DNA of 64,000 nucleotides from a virus: IMG/VR virus record IMGVR_UViG_3300005471_000012, positions 27,149-91,148 of that record. One strand, written 5' to 3'. Positions 16,097 through 26,000 of the stretch are shown here, in pieces. The notes beneath the pieces were generated by a model, which was not told where the DNA came from, ran no database searches, and worked only from the letters and a program-made list of their open reading frames with translations. Both the position numbers and the translations under genes were made by a program. Numbering within the stretch: position 1 is the first letter of the stretch; each line of letters opens with the position of its first letter.

Positions 16097-16551
16097 GACT
16101 GCCCCGCCTTCGCCGGCTCGTCGTTGTCGTGCGCGTTCGCCCACTTGCGGGCGGCGCTCTTGCTCGCGGTGTACTCGCTGACCCACGGGCACCGGGTGCA
16201 CCGGGCGTAGAACCCGGCGCGGTTAAGTACGATCTCGCAGTTGACCGTGGTGGCCACGACCGCGGAGCCAGGCCACGCCTGGCCCGCGGCATCCGCCGGC
16301 TCTTGCTCGTGCACGGTCAGCTTCACGGCGGCGATGTTCGCCCGGTAGCTTCCCCGGCGCGGCCGGTCATTGATCACGGGCATCCCCTCCAGCGTGATCC
16401 GCTGGCCCTTGACGGGTGCCTCCGTGAAAGACTTGAGGTAGGTCATGGTGACCGGCCCGGCGTCCCCGCGGTCGATCGTGACCGACAGGAACACGGAGCC
16501 GTGCGCAGTCGTGCGGCGCACCACCCGGGTAACCGTCCCGGTGATCGTCAT
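16093..16551 (-). CDS. putative OB-fold protein with a C-terminal CxxC..H Zn finger
   Basis: TITGTV...ITLEG beta pattern; CTRCPW...AH. Confidence 0.5.
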   Translation of the reverse strand: MTITGTVTRVVRRTTAHGSVFLSVTIDRGDAGPVTMTYLKSFTEAPVKGQRITLEGMPVINDRPRRGSYRANIAAVKLTVHEQEPADAAGQAWPGSAVVATTVNCEIVLNRAGFYARCTRCPWVSEYTASKSAARKWANAHDNDEPAKAGQS

Positions 16552-16778
16552 GTCTGCCGCCTCGCCCCGGCCTGCTTCTCGTAGAGCAGGCTGGCGACTT
16601 CATCAGCGCTGTCCATCGTCAGGCCAGCCGCATCGGTGATCAGTTCGATCAGCGCCCGGCTGTACTCGGGGTTGTCTTCGGCCGTACCGGGCCGCGCCAG
16701 CCCCGCGCTGTCAGGTCCCAGCTTGCGTGCCAGCCTGATCAGCTCACCGATGGTGACCCTGCGCGTAGTGTCGATCAT
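16548..16778 (-). CDS. hypothetical protein
   Basis: NPEY.RAL.ELI motif; downstream of promoter P3. Confidence 0.65.
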   Translation of the reverse strand: MIDTTRRVTIGELIRLARKLGPDSAGLARPGTAEDNPEYSRALIELITDAAGLTMDSADEVASLLYEKQAGARRQT

Positions 16779-16823
16779 GACCGTGTCCCATCCCTCTGGC
16801 TAGACTTCCGATCCCTACACGAC

Positions 16824-16852
16824 ACGATACGCCATTAGGCGAAACGTGTCTA
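16824..16852 (-). promoter_or_regulatory. promoter P3
   Basis: TAGACA-cgtttcgcctaatggcg-TATCGT. Confidence 0.7.
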
Positions 16853-16949
16853 CCTTTTAGCGTGCCGGATGCCTGCCGTGTTCACCGAACACACGCATGC
16901 TGAACGGCGGCGGCCTCGCGCGAGTGGGCTGGCGCCCGCGCGGGCAGCG

Positions 16950-16984
16950 GAAAGCCCCGCCCGGGGGCTGTCCGGGCGGGGCTC
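16950..16984 (-). terminator. putative terminator after the resolvase
   Basis: AGCCCCGCC stem pair followed by TTTC on the minus strand. Confidence 0.5.
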
Positions 16985-16999
16985 CTGGTGGCGTGGTGC

Positions 17000-17584
17000 C
17001 TAGCTGGCCGCCCTAGCCCGCGCTATCGTGCGGTACACGGTCGGCCGCGAGACGTCGAACAGCTCGGCCAGCTCGGTAATGTTGTGGCCGCCGGCCCGGT
17101 GCAGGGTGAGCAGGTGCGCTTGCCTGGTAGCGGACAGCTTGGGCGGCTTGCCCCTGAGGTGCCCTTTGGCCCGTGCGATGGCCATGCCCTCGCGGGTGCG
17201 CATGCGGAGCAGGTCGACCTCGAATTCGGCGAAGATCGCGAGTATGGCGAAGAACATCTTGCCCATCGGGTCGGCCGGGTCGTAGATGGTGCCGCCGAGT
17301 GAGAGTTTCACCCCGCGGGCCGTCAGGTCGTCGGCGATGTCCTGGAAATCGCGCACCGATCGCGCGAGCCGGTCCAGCTTGGGCGTCACGAGCGTGTCCC
17401 CGCTTCGCACGGCGGCTAGCGCTTTGCCTAGTTCCGGCCGGTCGCGGTTGGTGCCGGTTAGCCCGTGGTCCAGGTAGATGCGCCCGGGAGTCACCCCCAG
17501 GTCGCGGAGGGCCGCTTTCTGGGCGGCAAGATCCTGCTTTACGGTACTGCACCGGGCGTAGCCCGTAAGCGTGTCGTTTCCCAT
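17000..17584 (-). CDS. small serine recombinase (resolvase/invertase family) with C-terminal HTH
   Basis: GYARCST..Q catalytic Ser; RPEL; GDTLV..KLDRLARS; ELAELFDVSRPTVYR HTH. Confidence 0.95.
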   Translation of the reverse strand: MGNDTLTGYARCSTVKQDLAAQKAALRDLGVTPGRIYLDHGLTGTNRDRPELGKALAAVRSGDTLVTPKLDRLARSVRDFQDIADDLTARGVKLSLGGTIYDPADPMGKMFFAILAIFAEFEVDLLRMRTREGMAIARAKGHLRGKPPKLSATRQAHLLTLHRAGGHNITELAELFDVSRPTVYRTIARARAAS

Positions 17585-17589
17585 GCGGG

Positions 17590-17735
17590 GAGTGTACGGT
17601 AAGCGGGGCTGAGCGGTCAAATCCACCGTACACCCTATCTGAGACGGTCTTTCGGCAGGTCGGCACCTGACGGCAAGTGCATTTGGCGGCGTCCGCTGAA
17701 GGTTCCCCTACCGGACGCTTCGTAAACGGACATAC
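17590..17735. promoter_or_regulatory. putative res site
   Basis: Inverted repeat GTGTACGGT (17592-17600)/ACCGTACAC (17625-17633) plus further GTCCG/CGGAC half-sites immediately upstream of the resolvase. Confidence 0.55.
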
Positions 17736-17976
17736 CGGGCGCCCGTGCGCGGGGCTGAGCGGGCCGGTGCCGAGCCGGCGCCGGCAGGTACCCGGGCATA
17801 CGGAAAGCCCGCCGATCGACCGCGTACGGCCAGATCAGCGGGCTAGTTCCGGGCGGATGATCAGTTTCTGCCCGCGGTGCGCCGCATCTCGCGCGGCAGG
17901 GTGAGCGACACGAGCCACACGACAGGCCACATGGCCGCGCAGAATGCGGCCAGCAGCCGGCCCGGCTTGTCCGGGC

Positions 17977-18279
17977 TCACGCTTCGGCGCTCTTGGCGAA
18001 CCGCGCGGCCAGCCATGCCGTGTCCGCCTGGGCGAGCTGCGACCAGGCTAGGTAATCGGCGGGGTCGCCGGTAGCCTGCCAGCGGAGAAACATGGCGTGC
18101 TCGGCGTGGCGGGCCCTGATCGAGTCGGCCAGCAGGTTACGGGCCTGCTTTCGCGAGATGCGCCGGCGTCCGATGTACGGCCGTGCGGTCGCCTCCCGGG
18201 CGGCGTCGCCGGCAGGCGCGTATGCTTGGGCGTGGCGCCCGCGGCGGCCTGCGATCACCGGGCTTGGGCTGGTGGTCAT
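17977..18279 (-). CDS. hypothetical protein
   Basis: GAAAGGA RBS before MTTSP. Confidence 0.5.
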   Translation of the reverse strand: MTTSPSPVIAGRRGRHAQAYAPAGDAAREATARPYIGRRRISRKQARNLLADSIRARHAEHAMFLRWQATGDPADYLAWSQLAQADTAWLAARFAKSAEA

Positions 18280-18377
18280 GGGTCTGGTCCTTTCATCCTT
18301 GGCTAGGATTCCGATCGGCCGGCCTGGCCGTCGCGGCGCCGTCCCGGCAGGACCGGGGCGGCACCGTGACAGCCCGC

Positions 18378-18629
18378 CTAGCGGCTGAGCCGCTTGTCGC
18401 GCTGCTCGTTGTTCTCGCACCGCCAGATGTGGCCGTCCGGGGTTGGCACCCGGACTAGCCGTTTCCCGACGTCGCCGGCCTGGACGTAGCCGATCACGTC
18501 GCCAACGGGGATCAGGCCCTCGGTCGTGCGGATGCGGAGCTTGCCGACGTCATCCGCCGTGATCGTGTAGAACACCCGCTCGGCAGGCCGGGGCTCGGCC
18601 TCGGGCTCGGGCTTGAATATTTCCCGCAT
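18378..18629 (-). CDS. hypothetical protein with an internal repeat (DDVGK/GDVGK)
   Basis: GGAAGGA RBS. Confidence 0.65.
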   Translation of the reverse strand: MREIFKPEPEAEPRPAERVFYTITADDVGKLRIRTTEGLIPVGDVIGYVQAGDVGKRLVRVPTPDGHIWRCENNEQRDKRLSR

Positions 18630-18676
18630 GGTCTCTCTGTCCTTCCGTGCCGTGGTGCGGTCGGGATGCCGGGCGG

Positions 18677-18862
18677 TTACCGGCTGTACTTGAGATAGTG
18701 GGCGGGCTTCTCGCCCGTGGTGACCTTGCGGATTGCCGCGTCAATCTCGGCGCGGTTCTCCTGAATGAACTTGCGCATCGACAGGCCCGACGACTGCCAC
18801 CAGTCGTAAAGCCCTTCATCGTTGTTAATCCAGCCCTCCCGGCTGTCGCCACCTCGCGGCAT
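18677..18862 (-). CDS. conserved small phage protein
   Basis: WI.NDEGLY.WW..S..SMR.FI.ENR.EID motif; GAAAGGA RBS. Confidence 0.7.
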   Translation of the reverse strand: MPRGGDSREGWINNDEGLYDWWQSSGLSMRKFIQENRAEIDAAIRKVTTGEKPAHYLKYSR

Positions 18863-18885
18863 CGCTGGCCGTCCTTTCACGCTGG

Positions 18886-18953
18886 CACCCTGCCAGTCAT
18901 CAGCGCGGGTAGGGTGAGGTTCCCGCGGACGCCGGGCGGGCCGGCGTTTCGGC
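18886..18953 (-). ncRNA. type II hammerhead ribozyme HH1
   Basis: GCC-GAAA-CGCCGG-loop-CCGGCG-UC/-CGCGGG-AACCUCACCCUA-CCCGCG-CUGAUGA-CU-GGC-AGGGUG; loop I CACCCU can pair with tail AGGGUG. Confidence 0.85.
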
Positions 18954-19484
18954 TTAGCGCCCGGGCAGGTAGCGCCTGACCATGTCAAGGAATCCGGCGG
19001 GCAGCTCCCGGACCAGCCACGCCGAGCCGTAGCGGTAGCCGGTGACCGGGCACGGCGGCGTTAGGTCCAGGCTCGGCACCGTGCGGCCGTAGCCGTCCGT
19101 TTCCATGACTGGCGCCACGTGATCGCAGCCGGCCGTCATGCCGTTCAGGTGCCATCCGGCCAGCTTGACTAGCGCGGTTGCCTTGCCGGCGTCGAATCCG
19201 GGCGCGTACCCGGTTAGCTCGGCCAGCGGTTCCACAGTCGCGCCGCCTGACACAATGTCGCGCCAGTCCGGGTGCCAGACTGCGGTTGTGATGGAGAAAT
19301 CCAGCGGCCGCCGCACTTTGCGATGGTCGGTCGTCTCGTATTCGTCGCGCCGGTCCAGGCGTTCCATCGTGACCGTCACGGTAACGCGGAGATTCCGCTT
19401 GTATCCGTAGCCGGTGCCGGGCACCGTGCCCACGTAGACATCCTCACGGCTGAGCGCAATCTCGCCGTTTAGCCCTCTGGTCAT
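18954..19484 (-). CDS. hypothetical protein
   Basis: WHLNGM.AGC.H...CPVTGY.YG.AWL motif; GAAAGGA RBS. Confidence 0.7.
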   Translation of the reverse strand: MTRGLNGEIALSREDVYVGTVPGTGYGYKRNLRVTVTVTMERLDRRDEYETTDHRKVRRPLDFSITTAVWHPDWRDIVSGGATVEPLAELTGYAPGFDAGKATALVKLAGWHLNGMTAGCDHVAPVMETDGYGRTVPSLDLTPPCPVTGYRYGSAWLVRELPAGFLDMVRRYLPGR

Positions 19485-19530
19485 TTCGTGATCCTTTCCC
19501 GTGCCTGTCTGGGCTGGCTGCCGCTAGCTG

Positions 19531-19713
19531 TTACCCGGCGCTCTCGGTGATGCCGTATTCGCCGATCGTGTTCCCGTTGCCGTCAAGGATCTTGCCTGAG
19601 CCGTGGCCGGCCCGGATGCGCCGCGAGACGTTAGCGACGTAATCCGCCACGGCATCGGGCCCCGATTCGGCCGCCTCGGCATTGTCCAGGTTCATCGTCA
19701 GAGTGAAGATCAT
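19531..19713 (-). CDS. conserved small phage protein
   Basis: F.L.M..DNA.....G.I.D.NGNTIG.Y motif; GGAGG RBS. Confidence 0.7.
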   Translation of the reverse strand: MIFTLTMNLDNAEAAESGPDAVADYVANVSRRIRAGHGSGKILDGNGNTIGEYGITESAG

Positions 19714-19735
19714 TTTCGTCCGGCCTCCGGTCGTT

Positions 19736-19800
19736 TGCCCTGCCTTCGTCAGTGCCAGGCGGGCAGTCCTGGCAGACACCCGCGCGGCGGGTGTTTCGGC
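19736..19800 (-). ncRNA. type II hammerhead ribozyme HH2
   Basis: GCC-GAAA-CACCCG-loop-CGGGUG-UC/-UGCCAGG-ACUGCCCG-CCUGGCA-CUGACGA-A-GGC-A-GGGCA; loop I UGCCC can pair with tail GGGCA. Confidence 0.88.
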
Positions 19801-20100
19801 TCAGCCCTCGGCCGGGAAGCAGTCCGCATAGGTGAATTCGGAAGCCTCGGACTTCCACGGAATGTCTATCGTGTCGTCGCCGGACTCGATTGAGGCTTCG
19901 AAGTCGGTCACGTTTGAGAAGTCGCCGGCGTGCGTGTCAAGCCACGCCTGCACCGATTCGCGCGTGATCTTGCCATCGCCGTGCTGGCGCACGTTGTCAA
20001 CGTCATGCCCGCTTAGCTCGTACGTCTGGGCAGCGGTAACGCTCGCCATCCATATGGTCCCGATCACCCGGATAACCGACTTGCGGACCGTGTAGCGCAT
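19801..20100 (-). CDS. hypothetical protein
   Basis: GGAAGG RBS before MRYTV. Confidence 0.65.
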   Translation of the reverse strand: MRYTVRKSVIRVIGTIWMASVTAAQTYELSGHDVDNVRQHGDGKITRESVQAWLDTHAGDFSNVTDFEASIESGDDTIDIPWKSEASEFTYADCFPAEG

Positions 20101-20169
20101 CGTCTTGCCTTCCGTTCGGTTGCCGCTAGAAACTCCGCACCGCGCGCCGTGGCGCGCGATACGCAACCG

Positions 20170-20592
20170 CTAGGGCGTGCTGTCCTCTGCGGCGAACATT
20201 CCAAGCCGCTCATACTCGGCGGCCAGCCATTCCGCCTCGGCCGCGCTGTACTCCGCCTCGCGGGAAGAGTCGCCTGCATACTCGGAAGCCTCGCCGCGCA
20301 ATGCGAACGACTCGCCAGCGGCGGACAGGAACGATGCGAGCGCCCGTGCCATCTCGGCGTGACCGGCGGGCCGGCCCTGGGGTGACCTGAGGTCGGACCC
20401 TTCGAGCACTGTCCGCCCGTCGGCCACGACCAGGTAATCCCATCCGTTGCCGGCGTACGCCTTGCCTACGGTGCCGCCACCGTGCGCCGACAGGTAGAGC
20501 GAGATCTCGCCGGCGCCGGCCATGATCGGCGGTACCTCTACCGCGTACTCATGCTCGCTAGCGTCGTATCCGTAGATTTGCTGTCCGGTCAT
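20170..20592 (-). CDS. hypothetical protein
   Basis: GCAACGGAGG leader; GGGTVG.AY.G.W.Y motif. Confidence 0.65.
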   Translation of the reverse strand: MTGQQIYGYDASEHEYAVEVPPIMAGAGEISLYLSAHGGGTVGKAYAGNGWDYLVVADGRTVLEGSDLRSPQGRPAGHAEMARALASFLSAAGESFALRGEASEYAGDSSREAEYSAAEAEWLAAEYERLGMFAAEDSTP

Positions 20593-20622
20593 GACATCCT
20601 CCGTTGCTCTGCCTATATCGCC

Positions 20623-20651
20623 ATGATACACGGTTAGGCGAATGGCGTCTA
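20623..20651 (-). promoter_or_regulatory. promoter P4
   Basis: TAGACG-ccattcgcctaaccgtg-TATCAT. Confidence 0.7.
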
Positions 20652-20843
20652 GTTGTTAGGCGTGGTGACCAGCCATCGCGCGGCATCGTCGCGCGTGACC
20701 TCATGTAGCCGGCTGTTGCCGTCCGTCACTGTGAGGCGCCGGCCGTGCGCATGCACCGCGGCAACAGTGACAGGCCCGTGAGCTGCCGTCTCGACAGTCG
20801 CGCCTATCGCCGGCTGCCGGACGCGGCGGGTACGTGCTGCCAT
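20649..20843 (-). CDS. hypothetical small beta protein
   Basis: CGGAG RBS. Confidence 0.55.
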   Translation of the reverse strand: MAARTRRVRQPAIGATVETAAHGPVTVAAVHAHGRRLTVTDGNSRLHEVTRDDAARWLVTTPNN

Positions 20844-20902
20844 GCTGATCACTCCGTTTCGCTGGTCTCGAACGGGCCGGACTGTCCGGCCGGCCCGGTA
20901 GC

Positions 20903-21208
20903 TCAGCCGCGCGGCTGGATCGCGGCGTGATTCTTCCGGTAGGTGAACGCGCGGAAACGCACGATCGGCGGATCATCATCTGTCGCGACAGATGAGCCGG
21001 ACACGGTCTCAACTGACACGTACCCGGTAACAGTCTTGCCGTGCACCTCCACTGCGGCGGGAACACTAAAATACGTGTCCGCCGTTGCCGCTATGCGCTT
21101 GAGCGCGCGAACCTTACCGTCAGCGCATTCCGCCCGCCCGCCCGTGAAAACATCCCACATGCCGCCGGTAGTGAGACTTGTACCGTTCGCATACTGCCTG
21201 ATTCCCAT
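20903..21208 (-). CDS. conserved phage hypothetical protein
   Basis: C.DGK.R.....ADT.FSVPA.V...GKTV.GY motif; GGAGG RBS. Confidence 0.7.
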   Translation of the reverse strand: MGIRQYANGTSLTTGGMWDVFTGGRAECADGKVRALKRIAATADTYFSVPAAVEVHGKTVTGYVSVETVSGSSVATDDDPPIVRFRAFTYRKNHAAIQPRG

Positions 21209-21283
21209 TGCCCTAACCTCCGGTTGCGTTGCCCGTAATGATCAGTCCGGCCACGTGCCAGCGTTCAGAACGCGGCCGGGAGC

Positions 21284-21550
21284 TCACGGCGAGACGGATG
21301 CGCTATCCGGCAGGTACTGACGTACGCGATTGATGAAAACGCGGTGCGCTTCGGCCTGGTCGGCGAAGATCTTTGCCGGCCACCTCGGGTCGGTTTCGTC
21401 GCCGTGTGCCGTGACGTTGCGAGAGCTGATCTGCACTAGCGCGCGGCCATCGGGATGCACCGCGTAAAAGATCCGCGCGGAACCTCCGCCAGTGTGATCC
21501 TCGAACACGCCAAGGATCTTGAATCCTTGTATCCGCTGGTATTGCTCCAC
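21284..21550 (-). CDS. hypothetical protein
   Basis: GCAACGGAGG leader. Confidence 0.65.
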   Translation of the reverse strand: MEQYQRIQGFKILGVFEDHTGGGSARIFYAVHPDGRALVQISSRNVTAHGDETDPRWPAKIFADQAEAHRVFINRVRQYLPDSASVSP

Positions 21551-21646
21551 TGCTCTGACCTCCGTTGCCCTGTACCTCGCACCGTACGGTCGGACGGTGC
21601 GCCATGGCCGGCGCCAGACTGGGGAGGCTGGCGCCCGCCATGATCA
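21551..21646 (-). repeat. two-hairpin leader element A, copy 1
   Basis: ~48 nt shared with 21977-22070 with 3 differences, plus a CATG-closed variable hairpin. Confidence 0.8.
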
Positions 21647-21976
21647 GCTTGTGATTTTCCAGAACGATACGGCGTGACGTTCGCCGCCGAGATTGCTGCC
21701 GCACACATCGCAGGCGGACCAGCTGAACGACTCTGTCTCGCAGTCGCACTCGCTGCCAGCCTCGCCGGCCGTCTGGCCGTCAAAGTCGTCCGTGCATGAG
21801 TGCTCGCTGCGGAGTAGCCCTAGCGTGATCCTGTAGCCGGCGTTGCGCGTGTCAATCTCTGCCTGCCAGGCGGTAACGTGCGCCGCGCTCCAATCGGCCG
21901 GCGTCTCGCCGTTTGCCAGCAAAAACAGGCAGTCCGTGCACGCCCAACCGCTGCACGTGTACTCATCTGTTGCCAT
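21644..21976 (-). CDS. Cys-rich protein (CxDC...FSW..CD.CG..L.G.RH)
   Basis: GCAACGGAGG leader; Zn-binding motifs. Confidence 0.7.
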   Translation of the reverse strand: MATDEYTCSGWACTDCLFLLANGETPADWSAAHVTAWQAEIDTRNAGYRITLGLLRSEHSCTDDFDGQTAGEAGSECDCETESFSWSACDVCGSNLGGERHAVSFWKITS

Positions 21977-22070
21977 TGCCTTACCTCCGTTGCCCTGCAC
22001 TCGCACCGTACGGTCGCACGGTGCGCCATGAAGCGCGGCAGGCCTGCCGGACTGTCACGCAACATGATCA
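21977..22070 (-). repeat. two-hairpin leader element A, copy 2
   Basis: Matches copy 1 at 21551-21646. Confidence 0.8.
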
Positions 22071-22073
22071 GCG

Positions 22074-22358
22074 TTAGGCGTTCGGGTTGGGGCCCGTCCG
22101 CCATGCGTAGGCCGGCGAGATACGGCCAATGCCGGCCCGGTAGTGATGCTTGGAACGCGGCACGATGCGAGCGGCATAGTTGCCGGCGATGACCTCGCCG
22201 CGCCGGTAGGCACCGCGCGTTGCCGTGACCTTAACGGTGATACTGCCGGACAGTTCGTGTCCGGCAGCTCCGGCAACTACCTCGGTAACCTTTACCGGCA
22301 CCATGCCGTTACGCATCGTGTCGATATACGCCAACTCGCCTGCATAGTGGTCAGTCAT
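22074..22358 (-). CDS. hypothetical protein
   Basis: GCAACGGAGG leader; VTATRGAY.RGE motif. Confidence 0.7.
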   Translation of the reverse strand: MTDHYAGELAYIDTMRNGMVPVKVTEVVAGAAGHELSGSITVKVTATRGAYRRGEVIAGNYAARIVPRSKHHYRAGIGRISPAYAWRTGPNPNA

Positions 22359-22425
22359 TGCCCTACCTCCGTTGCGTTGCCGTATCGATCACGGCCGGCA
22401 CGTGCGAGACGTGCCGGCGAGTCCG

Positions 22426-22725
22426 CTACGCCGACTCTGAGCAGTCATCCTCAGCGCACGACGTAACCCACCAGGCGGTAGGTATGTCATGCGCCGAGTC
22501 GGGGTTCGTCGCCGTGTAGACCAGGAAGTCCTGACCTGCCGTTGCGCCGTGAATCGCAGTGTGCGCTTCGAGGTACTGTTCGTCCGTGCCGTCATCCCAT
22601 GCGCGCTCAAGATCCTCACGCAGAGCTGACAGCGCATCGGACCAATCCGCGTACGGGTAGCCCGCATCATCCGACTCGGGCAGGTAGCCTGCCACGTTGT
22701 GGCCAGCGTGCCAGTGCATCGCCAT
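22426..22725 (-). CDS. hypothetical acidic protein, first gene of the leftward array
   Basis: W.AG.N..GYLPE motif; GCAACGGAGG leader. Confidence 0.7.
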   Translation of the reverse strand: MAMHWHAGHNVAGYLPESDDAGYPYADWSDALSALREDLERAWDDGTDEQYLEAHTAIHGATAGQDFLVYTATNPDSAHDIPTAWWVTSCAEDDCSESA

Positions 22726-22757
22726 TGCCTTACCTCCGTTGCTTGCCGATACTCGGC

Positions 22758-22786
22758 ACGATACAGCATCATGCGAACGCTGTCTA
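22758..22786 (-). promoter_or_regulatory. promoter P5 at the head of the leftward array
   Basis: TAGACA-gcgttcgcatgatgctg-TATCGT. Confidence 0.75.
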
Positions 22787-23068
22787 GCTATCTGGCGAGG
22801 CAACGTGCGGACGCTGCCGGCCTGGCAGGCAGGTACGGATGCGCAGGGCACAAGGCTTGACCCCCCCCTCGGGGGGTCCCCAATCGCCCGAAGTCGCATA
22901 GGCGAATGCAGAAACCCCGGCTAGCCCGGTCCCTGACGAGCCTCGCGCGCGCGTGCGAGTGGCATTTCGTCCCGGTTTGATTCCCCCTGATTTTTTTGGT
23001 GGCAGTCAGCTGCCGCGCGAGTGGCGGCTGACTGCCGCTGAACGCCGACCTACCGGGGCGGGGGTTGC

Positions 23069-26000
23069 ATGCCGGCCGCCGAGATGACCGCCCGTACCCG
23101 CGAGATCATGCGCGCGCTGAAGTCAACGGCGCAGCCGGGCTCGCAGAGCGGCGGGTTCGGCGCCGTGACGGGCCCGTCTATCTCGCCCGGGCCGAGCCCG
23201 CTGGTCATGTCGTACGGCGAATGGACGTCCGGGCGGGCATCAGGCACCAGGTATTCCCTGCCCCGTGACCCTGAGACGTTCCTGTCGGGCATGTTCGGGC
23301 CGCTCGCGCCTATTCAGACCATCCCGATCGACGTGCCCCGCGAGGGCGAGGAACGGCCCGAGCCGCGGCGGTGGCAGTACCCGGTCGGCTGGAACATGCC
23401 GATGGGCATGCCCGGCACCGAGGGGATCGGGAAACTCGCCGATTTCCAGACGCTGCGCACGATCGCCGACCTCTACTCGGTGGCCAGGGCCTGCATCGAA
23501 CTGCGGAAAGCCGAGCTACGGGGGGTCGGCTGGGACATCGTGCTGACGAAGCAGGCGGCTAAGGCGCTGCGCGGCGACCACAAGGGGATGGCCGACTTCG
23601 CGAAGAGGCGCGCCGAGGCGGTGCGGTGGTGGCGGCGTCCCGACCACGATTACGCCGATTTCAGCACTTGGTTCGATGCGCTGCTGGAAGAGGTGTTCGT
23701 CACCGACGCGCTGGCGCTGTACGCGCAGCCGTCGCTCGGCACCCGCAAGGGACTGCTGGGCAGCAGCCTGGCCGCCCTCGACCTCATCGACGGGACGCTG
23801 ATCAAGCCGCTCGTTGACATCCGGGGCAGCAGGCCGCAGCCGCCGAATCCTAGCTACCAGCAGTTCTCCTACGGGGTTCCGCGCGTCGACCTGATGACGC
23901 TGCTCACCCACCATGAGACCCCCGATGAGCGGGAACTGGTCGCCGAGTACCGCGGCGACCAGCTGTTCTACCTGCCCTACAGCCAGCGGACGTGGACGCC
24001 GTACGGGATGGCGCCGATCGAGCGGGCGATCATCCCGATCATGGCGGGGCTGAACAAGCAGGCCTACCAGCTGAATTTCTTCCAGGAAGGCAGCATTCCG
24101 GGCCTGTTCGTGTCACCGGGCGACATGAACATGACCCCCAGCCAGATCCGCGAGCTGCAGGACGCCCTGAACGCGCTGGCGGGGGACCAGTCGTGGAAAC
24201 ACAAGATCATCGTGCTGCCGGGCGGCAGCAAGGTTGACCCGCAGAAGCCCGCGGCGCTCGCCGACCAGTTCGACGACGTGATCATGGCGCAGACCTGCAT
24301 GGCCTTCGGGGTCATGCCGATGGAGCTGGGCATTTCGCCGCAGGTCAGTTCAAGTCAGTCATCTGCGGCAGCTAACCAGATGGCCAAAGCCAGCCAGGAC
24401 ATCCAGGAACGCAAGTCAACCGTCCCGCTGCTGCTGTGGCTCAAGACCGCGATCTTCGACCGGATCCTGCAGGGCGTCTGCGGCCAGGCAGACATGGAAT
24501 GGCAGTTCGAGGGCCTCGAAGAGGACGAGGACGCCGAGACGGTCACCAGCCTGCTGGTGCAGCAGGTCGGCACCGGCATGCGGTCGATCGACGAGGCCCG
24601 GCAGGAACTTGGCCTGGACCCGTGGAACCTGCCGGTCACCTCCGATCCGGGCTGGTCGACCGAGCGGACCGGGTTCGTGTCTTTCACGGCGACCGGGGCG
24701 TTCCCGACCGCGGGCGGCGCTTCGCAGGGCGACACGCAAACCGACAGCCAGTCTGGCTCGGTGGCGCTGCCTGCCGCCGATCCGCGGCAGGCGATCACCG
24801 CGCCGAAACCACCCGATGACGGCAAGCCGTCCACGCCGGCGCATTCCGCGGCGCATGCCACCCCCGACGCGACCCGGAGCAAGCCGGCATCCGGCAACGG
24901 CCGCGCCGGGAAAGCCGCGAGCCTCGGCCAGTGGCGAGCCCGCGACATCCCCGCGCATGTCATGGCGATCATGGCCGAGGACCTGGGCAAGGGGCTGACC
25001 GCCGATGAGGTGTGCGCCAGCGTCCGGCCGCTGCTCGCCGGCAGCAAGCCGGCGCTCCGCGAACTGGGCCTGATCCGCTCATGGCTGCGCAAGTCGCACA
25101 CGAATGTGACAACCCGGCACGGGCACGGCGACCAGACCCACGAGGTGTACGCCTACCTCGGGCGGCACTACCCGGCGTCGGTACTCGAATGGGTCAAGGA
25201 AGCCCGCTGGGACGAGCCGAGAAAAGTGGCACTGTCGAAAATCGACATGGCACGCCGTCCGGGTGGCGCCCGCGACGAGCAGAAAGTTGCCCTGATCGCC
25301 GCCGCGATCAGGGCAGGCGTGCACCTGCCCCCGGTCGTCCTGGTGAACGTGCCCGGCAAGAACCTGTACGAGATCGCCGACGGATGGCATCGCACCCTGG
25401 CCATCAAGCACGCAGGCGGCAAGACGGCACTGGCATGGGTCGGCAAAGCCGGCGCGAAAACCGGGCCCTGGGACGGCGAGATGAACCGGGCCAAGCTGAA
25501 CAAGGCCGCCGGGGGTGGTGCCGGCCCAAAAGCGGGTAACCCGGCCTGGGACCACGACCAGGTCCTGGCCGCCGAGTTCGCCCGTCAGCTGGCGCGTGGC
25601 CTGCAAGCCTCGGTGCACGCCGGGCCGTTCGCGCACGCGTGGCTGCAAGCCCGCCGGCAAGGCGCAAGCGCGCCGCAGGCCAGCCCAGCGGTCCGGGCGG
25701 CCGTCAGGCACGCTCTGGCGAGCGTGCTGTACGCCCTGTGGGCACGGGCCTGGGGCCTGGGCTGGCGGGCCGCGCTGACCCTGCTTGCCGCGCAGCTGCG
25801 TCGTTTGCTGACCGGTGACCCCGGCGTATCTGCCCGGGGGCTGCGGCAGTTGCTCTTGCAAGCCGAACAGCGCATCGGCGCGATGACGCAAACCCGCATC
25901 GGCCGCCTGGAAAGGCTGCTCGGCGAAACCCCGGAAAACATCAGCGCCGCTGAGCTGGCCTCGCTGATCGACGCCGAGCTCGGCTCGTTTGACGCGGCGC

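Follow-up and report, generated by a model that had tools for sequence, protein, structure and literature searches.

A type II hammerhead ribozyme and its partner copy between small genes of a phage

Early transcripts of phages such as T7 and T4 are cut between cistrons by RNase III or RNase E. Hammerhead ribozymes cleave to leave a 5'-OH and a 2',3'-cyclic phosphate. Type II hammerheads with a pseudoknot (RF02276) lie in clusters that flank genes in prophages, and the identities of the flanked genes vary (Perreault et al. 2011, PMC3088659). In the same study a trio of hammerheads from A. tumefaciens self-cleaved on transcription in E. coli. In Desulfovibrio vulgaris, three type II hammerheads that adjoin phage-like genes, two of them ~310 nt apart, cleave in vivo (PMC8782182). 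A 2017 review left open what hammerheads do in prokaryotes (PMC6155905). Hammerheads also bound the circular RNAs of viroids, satellite RNAs and retrozymes, which have motifs of type I or III and compact folds and for the most part encode no protein (PMC5680766, PMC7229834).

Here we describe HH2, a type II hammerhead in the genome of an uncultured, high-GC tailed phage, together with a second copy, HH1. HH2 shares its topology, core bases, GUC triplet, 5-bp pseudoknot and phage context with the described type II hammerheads, and differs from them in one extra A between A9 and G10.1. As in the A. tumefaciens trio and at D. vulgaris loc 2/3, same-strand ribozymes bracket small genes of unknown function and each lies after a stop codon and ahead of the next ribosome-binding site, whereas the present locus, known here from sequence, has no more than two copies, which are separated by 847 nt and two genes, and belongs to a phage whose host is probably an actinomycete (68% GC). 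The layout itself is not new, since clustered gene-flanking hammerheads in phages have been known since 2011. Two cuts would free a unit-length RNA whose joined ends rebuild a hammerhead, as in viroids and retrozymes, but the motifs are type II, two proteins are encoded and no compact fold is predicted. The outcome that we propose, a long transcript cut into pieces with protective hairpins, resembles the processing of T7 and T4 transcripts, except that this RNA would cut itself with no host enzyme and would be left with 5'-OH and cyclic phosphate ends. HH2 adds a further clean case to a class of ribozymes with an unsettled role in phages.

Two hammerheads in a block of small genes

The source is a 91-kb linear IMG/VR virus record of ~68% G+C, estimated to be 81% complete, and the window that we analyzed is the 64-kb stretch formed by its bases 27149-91148. 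A gene map based on GC3 and ribosome-binding sites places a minus-strand block of small genes from ~22.9 kb down to 9 kb. This block diverges from a plus-strand structural module, the first gene of which is the portal gene at 23069. Reading along the minus strand, the order is a 140-aa gene, a 99-aa gene, HH2, gene A, gene B, HH1, gene C, further small genes and a resolvase gene (Table 1). A scan by consensus found a promoter-like site that could start a polycistronic transcript, and from 16500 to 23500 the minus strand showed no terminator-like site. HH2 lies on the same strand as its flanking genes and fills the space that separates the stop codon from the ribosome-binding site, with the next ORF starting 28 nt after stem II.

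Table 1. Features of the ribozyme pair and its surroundings, in window coordinates and in the order of the minus strand
Feature	Position	Strand	Details and basis
Promoter-like site TAGACG-17-TATCAT	20623..20651	(-)	Consensus scan only; could start a polycistronic transcript
99-aa gene upstream of HH2	19801..20100	(-)	Gene map
TGA stop of 99-aa gene	19801..19803	(-)	Sequence; last A (19801) is the first base of HH2, Rfam model position 1
HH2, complete type II hammerhead	19734..19801	(-)	68-base spacer; Rfam model positions 1-66
HH2 stem II, 5' strand	19798..19800	(-)	GCC (11.3-11.1); sequence, parse
HH2 core G12 A13 A14	19795..19797	(-)	Sequence, parse
HH2 stem III hairpin, A15.1 to U16.1	19776..19794	(-)	A-CACCCG(C)/(G)CGGGUG-U; 8 pairs, 3-nt loop
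HH2 predicted cleavage site, C17 (19775) / U1.1 (19774)	19774..19775	(-)	Position after GUC; model alignment and parse
HH2 stem I hairpin	19753..19774	(-)	UGCCAGG (19774-19768) / CCUGGCA (19759-19753); 7 pairs, 8-nt loop (19760-19767)
HH2 core C3-A9	19746..19752	(-)	CUGACGA (N7 = C); sequence, Rfam alignment
HH2 extra A between A9 and G10.1	19745	(-)	Insertion in Rfam alignment
HH2 stem II, 3' strand	19742..19744	(-)	GGC (10.1-10.3); sequence, parse
HH2 pseudoknot	19765-19761 with 19740-19736	(-)	Loop I UGCCC with 3'-tail GGGCA; 5 bp, direct complementarity
Ribosome-binding site of gene A	19724..19728	(-)	GGAGG, 7 nt after HH2; sequence, gene map
RNA between the two predicted cuts	18928..19774	(-)	847 nt, would carry genes A and B; putative RNA species
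Gene A	19531..19713	(-)	60 aa, function unknown; weak PHROG match phrog_9027
Gene B	18954..19484	(-)	176 aa; uncharacterised conserved family
HH1, partner type II hammerhead	18884..18954	(-)	Predicted cut C18928/C18927; CU bulge after A9
Gene C	18677..18862	(-)	61 aa, first cistron after HH1; no family found
Resolvase gene	17000-17626	(-)	Downstream in the minus-strand block

HH2 is a genuine, well-formed type II hammerhead. The Hammerhead_II model (RF02276) scored it in Rfam cmscan at 51.0 bits against a gathering cut-off of 37 bits, with an E value of 1.5e-7 for the whole window and 4.8e-8 on 20 kb. Judged by the core that is defined in the Methods of PMC3088659 (C3 U4 G5 A6 N7 G8 A9, G12 A13 A14, A15.1-U16.1 and H17), the conserved core is complete: CUGACGA, GAA, the closing A-U pair and C17 as H17. 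The pairs adjoining the core all match as well, with U-A at 1.1-2.1, G-C at 10.1-11.1 (A19745 bulged out) and A-U at 15.1-16.1. The topology is permuted, in that stems I and III are capped by loops and the short, 3-bp stem II is open, and the sequence adopts the three-way junction as its minimum-free-energy fold (z -2.8). The pseudoknot, at 5 bp, exceeds the minimum of 4 bp asked of a type II hammerhead. The first-pass annotation had read this site as a type II hammerhead that starts right after a stop codon and has a UGCCC/GGGCA pseudoknot, and had placed its cleavage between 19775 and 19774; the covariance-model score, the three stems and full set of core bases, the two complementary strands, the shared A of the TGA and the same cut site in model alignment and parse all bear this out.

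We also searched both strands of the window with a structure-aware detector that was written for this analysis and is laxer than the Rfam cut-off. It returned HH2 and HH1 and nothing else, and gave zero hits on 1 Mb of reversed control sequence. In the full 91-kb record there are likewise no hammerheads besides these two.

HH1 scored 32.8 bits against RF02276, below the cut-off, yet parsed as a complete hammerhead with the detector. Its minimum-free-energy fold is not the hammerhead fold, and its pseudoknot has 6 bp; HH1 may depend on this pseudoknot, or may be a poor cutter. Of the 16 pairs that can be compared between HH2 and HH1, five differ by a change of both bases. Single-sided changes and broken pairs are absent. 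The pseudoknots have diverged in sequence but each is complementary. Stem II (GCC/GGC) is identical in both copies. These differences, which had been put forward earlier as compensatory, fit selection on the RNA fold, although two copies alone are thin covariation evidence and the main support comes from the covariance-model score and the family-wide pattern described below. The two-gene segment of ~850 nt that had been proposed between the copies also agrees with the present measurement, since the predicted cuts lie 847 nt apart with genes A and B in between.

An insertion interrupts the same junction of the core in each copy, A19745 in HH2 and CU in HH1. In canonical hammerheads A9 runs directly into G10.1. 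Among 179 unique hammerheads in our first sample, 139 had no insertion after A9 and 37 had a U there, but an A was never seen, and the possibility that the extra A was unique to HH2 was rejected only by a dedicated IMG/VR scan for CUGAYGA-A-GGC, which found it in 46 other verified viral type II hammerheads from phages of very different G+C content. The extra A is a recurring minority variant, and it may slow the cutting of HH2. A parallel is the CChMVd (+) hammerhead, in which an A is likewise added between A9 and G10.1 while the rest of the core is canonical (De la Pena and Flores 2001, cited in PMC2632901). There the added base reportedly lowers the cleavage rate moderately. That ribozyme is a type III viroid motif whereas HH2 is a pseudoknotted type II, so its kinetics are not transferable.

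Placement and arrays of type II hammerheads in other phages

For comparison, an IMG/VR pattern scan supplied 116 other viral loci (L092-L207, ~1 Mb), in which the detector found 190 type II hammerheads; both this set and the CUGAYGA-A-GGC set were seeded by sequence patterns. Arrays reach 11 copies with a median spacing of ~450 nt, and the 847 nt between HH2 and HH1 fall within the usual range. Checked against Rfam, all 11 copies of one array (L109) were confirmed, as were seven hammerheads and two pistol ribozymes in a 95-kb provirus record (L250), while only three of 11 copies in L093, none of 10 in L184 and none in L035 passed the Rfam cut-off, which is stricter than the detector. The pistol ribozymes of L250 (3742-3810 and 4392-4460 on the plus strand, 68 and 67 bits) belong to the same gene array as its seven hammerheads. 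Loop I can pair over at least 5 bp with the hammerhead's own 3' tail in 57 of 179 cases and with a swapped tail in 6 of 179.

The position of HH2 directly at a stop codon recurs throughout this survey. A stop triplet ended 3 nt before G12 in 52 and 4 nt before G12 in 44 of the 190 hammerheads, compared with about 6 at other offsets. When only stops that close a frame of at least 40 codons were counted, 135 of 190 hammerheads (71%) had such a stop 2-8 nt before G12, 82 of them at -3 or -4, against 27% of random stop triplets that close a frame of this length. The last base or two of the stop codon mostly falls within the opening bases of the ribozyme, at or beside the 5' strand of stem II, and the next same-strand ORF starts a median of 23 nt after stem II. 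Starting at a stop codon is therefore general among the type II hammerheads of phages, and the conserved A and G at positions 1 and 2 of the Rfam model may partly reflect stop codons. We found no paper describing an overlap of hammerheads with stop codons.

A second regularity concerns stem II. The pair 10.2-11.2 is uniform within 24 of 29 arrays (L093, L109, L184, L101, L156 and 24 others), while stems I and III vary between copies. Neighboring copies have this pair in common in 84% of cases, compared with 32% for random pairs, although over the whole set three pair types occur about equally often. This uniformity within arrays could reflect ribozyme halves that are kept cross-compatible, or slow compensatory change. 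The latter is the simpler account, as a helix of 2-3 bp tolerates no intermediate and would change slowly after duplication.

Relatives of the flanked genes

Gene B belongs to a family with 99 homologs among metagenomic and phage proteins, aligned with invariant T51, H54, C120, H122 and C145 and a GYRYG.AWL motif. It matched no family in Pfam or PHROG. Its AF2 model is very confident (pLDDT 95.9), but a Foldseek search against the PDB gave no match (E > 0.1) and the best VIA-align Z was 3.7, which is not convincing. The name 'Lar' is attached to a 36%-identical tblastn hit, and we did not adopt it, as no profile backs it.

A link between the ribozyme and gene B was considered and rejected. Rfam searches found no hammerheads in 20 gene-B loci and none at E<=1 in the closest of them (L005, 55% identity), and the detector gave hits in two of 87 gene-B loci, of which L035 was the only one with flanking hammerheads. 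At L035:1600-3850 (+) there are three hammerhead-like motifs, all below the Rfam cut-off, and two of them bracket genes of 60, 151 and 286 aa; the 286-aa gene holds a distant gene-B-like domain.

The other neighbors gave the same picture. Only one viral contig (L266) has a homolog of the 99-aa gene, at 64% identity, and there the homolog abuts the next gene with no hammerhead between them. A gene A homolog that is 56% identical occurs in L266/L267 behind a plain 40-nt spacer, with no hammerhead nearby. No hammerheads were found in the 22-kb record of L266 or in the full records G001-G003. Conservation of HH2 by position was rejected on this ground, since L266 has ordinary short spacers at both places. 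Genes A and B are also not a fixed pair, as G001 has gene A without gene B, and only 3-4 of 87 loci have a weak A-like ORF ahead of the B-like gene. Since the nearest relatives that carry homologs of the 99-aa gene, gene A or gene B are free of hammerheads throughout their records, the ribozyme is dispensable for expressing these genes, and the ribozymes are accessory elements that are quickly gained or lost.

Proposed self-cleavage of a polycistronic message and its alternatives

We consider it probable that HH2 cuts a polycistronic transcript of accessory genes into hairpin-capped pieces by cleaving its own RNA. HH2 would fold as the RNA is made and cut after C19775. The upstream product would keep the 99-aa cistron with its stop, followed by 26 nt that close with the stem III hairpin and a 2',3'-cyclic phosphate, and the downstream product, with genes A and B, would start with a 5'-OH and the stem I hairpin just ahead of the ribosome-binding site. 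HH1 would cut likewise 847 nt further downstream, and the stability and translation of the pieces would no longer depend on neighboring cistrons. Ends with a 5'-OH and hairpins at the 5' end slow RNases that depend on the 5' end, and hairpins at the 3' end slow 3' exonucleases; the pieces of the present transcript would presumably be protected in the same way. The pistol ribozymes within the L250 hammerhead array point to cleavage as the selected activity, and we infer that HH2 cleaves in vivo and affects expression.

Several other readings of the pair can be weighed against this one. The insertions after A9 and the overlap with the stop codon could slow cleavage or tie it to Mg2+, temperature or ribosome traffic, so that cutting tunes the message, a reading that we regard as unlikely. 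It would account for insertions at the same core junction in both copies, it would match the moderate slowing reported for CChMVd (+), and a terminating ribosome would, from the size of its footprint, cover the 5' strand of stem II and part of stem III. Perreault et al. also suggested that slower phage variants may be regulated (PMC3088659), but the stop overlap is general in canonical copies too and may be just compact packing. It is improbable that the hammerheads are selfish or decaying passengers that came with mobile gene cassettes and bring the phage no benefit, or that they serve as DNA-level sequence for cassette shuffling. Relatives without hammerheads speak for this reading, and the flanked genes vary across phages (L035 being the single flanked case in 87 gene-B loci), as Perreault et al. 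remarked for their clusters; on the other hand, the intact core, the compensation of all five changed pairs and the kept pseudoknot speak for purifying selection on the RNA fold, and the precise placement from stop to ribosome-binding site recurs in hundreds of copies. That HH2 is a chance match and no ribozyme can be given practically no weight. Nothing except the high GC content, which favors hairpins, speaks for it, and it would have to accommodate the E value for the window, the empty reversed control and a further copy that is placed in a similar way.

The remaining reading is that the 847-nt RNA is closed, by an RtcB-type ligase of the host or by the reverse hammerhead reaction, into an exonuclease-resistant circular mRNA that encodes A and B. 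The end chemistry would be suitable, and so would the geometry: hairpin III lies wholly 5' and hairpin I with the pseudoknot wholly 3' of the cut, and stem II is common to the two copies. At the junction, a complete chimeric hammerhead would therefore be made up of HH1's 5' half and HH2's 3' half, and the joined HH1/HH2 sequence folds as a three-way junction. The uniform stem II of arrays in other phages, found although the three pair types are about equally common, would then be kept because it lets neighboring halves reassemble on the ends of the excised RNA. We regard both this account of the arrays and the circle itself as highly improbable. Perreault et al. sought spliced or circular products and detected none (PMC3088659), as the 2017 review repeats (PMC6155905), and we found no paper describing phage hammerhead circles. 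There is no RtcB or Rnl-type ligase in the 91-kb phage record and no RtcB in 10 other array-bearing phage records, and the predicted minimum-free-energy fold of the 847 nt has neither an end-to-end helix nor a rod-like shape, although predictions for RNAs this long are unreliable. The uniform stem II can also be explained by a short helix that acquires compensatory changes slowly, and the occurrence of pistol and hammerhead ribozymes in one array argues against a ligation role specific to hammerheads. The circularization that the first-pass annotation had offered as an inference thus finds no support here; if it were true, a two-gene message could be closed into an exonuclease-proof circular mRNA.

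For the splitting of the message that we favor, as for circle formation, the two-copy, two-gene system offers a small test case in which cuts can be set against message stability and protein yield. The stop codon in the first bases of the ribozyme and the uniform stem II within arrays provide concrete hypotheses to test.

Hairpins also occur in other spacers. Two spacers of ~95 nt in the same operon, on the minus strand (21551-21643 and 21977-22073), have nearly the same hairpin, GCGCACCGU...ACGGUGCGAG, with GGGCAACGGAGGU between it and the start codon, and neither had an Rfam match at E<=10. The 98-nt spacer at 18280-18377 (-) holds a long, near-perfect GC-rich hairpin of ~21 pairs (-54.7 kcal/mol, z -3.35), which may serve as a processing site of the RNase III type or as a stabilizer in the same transcript.
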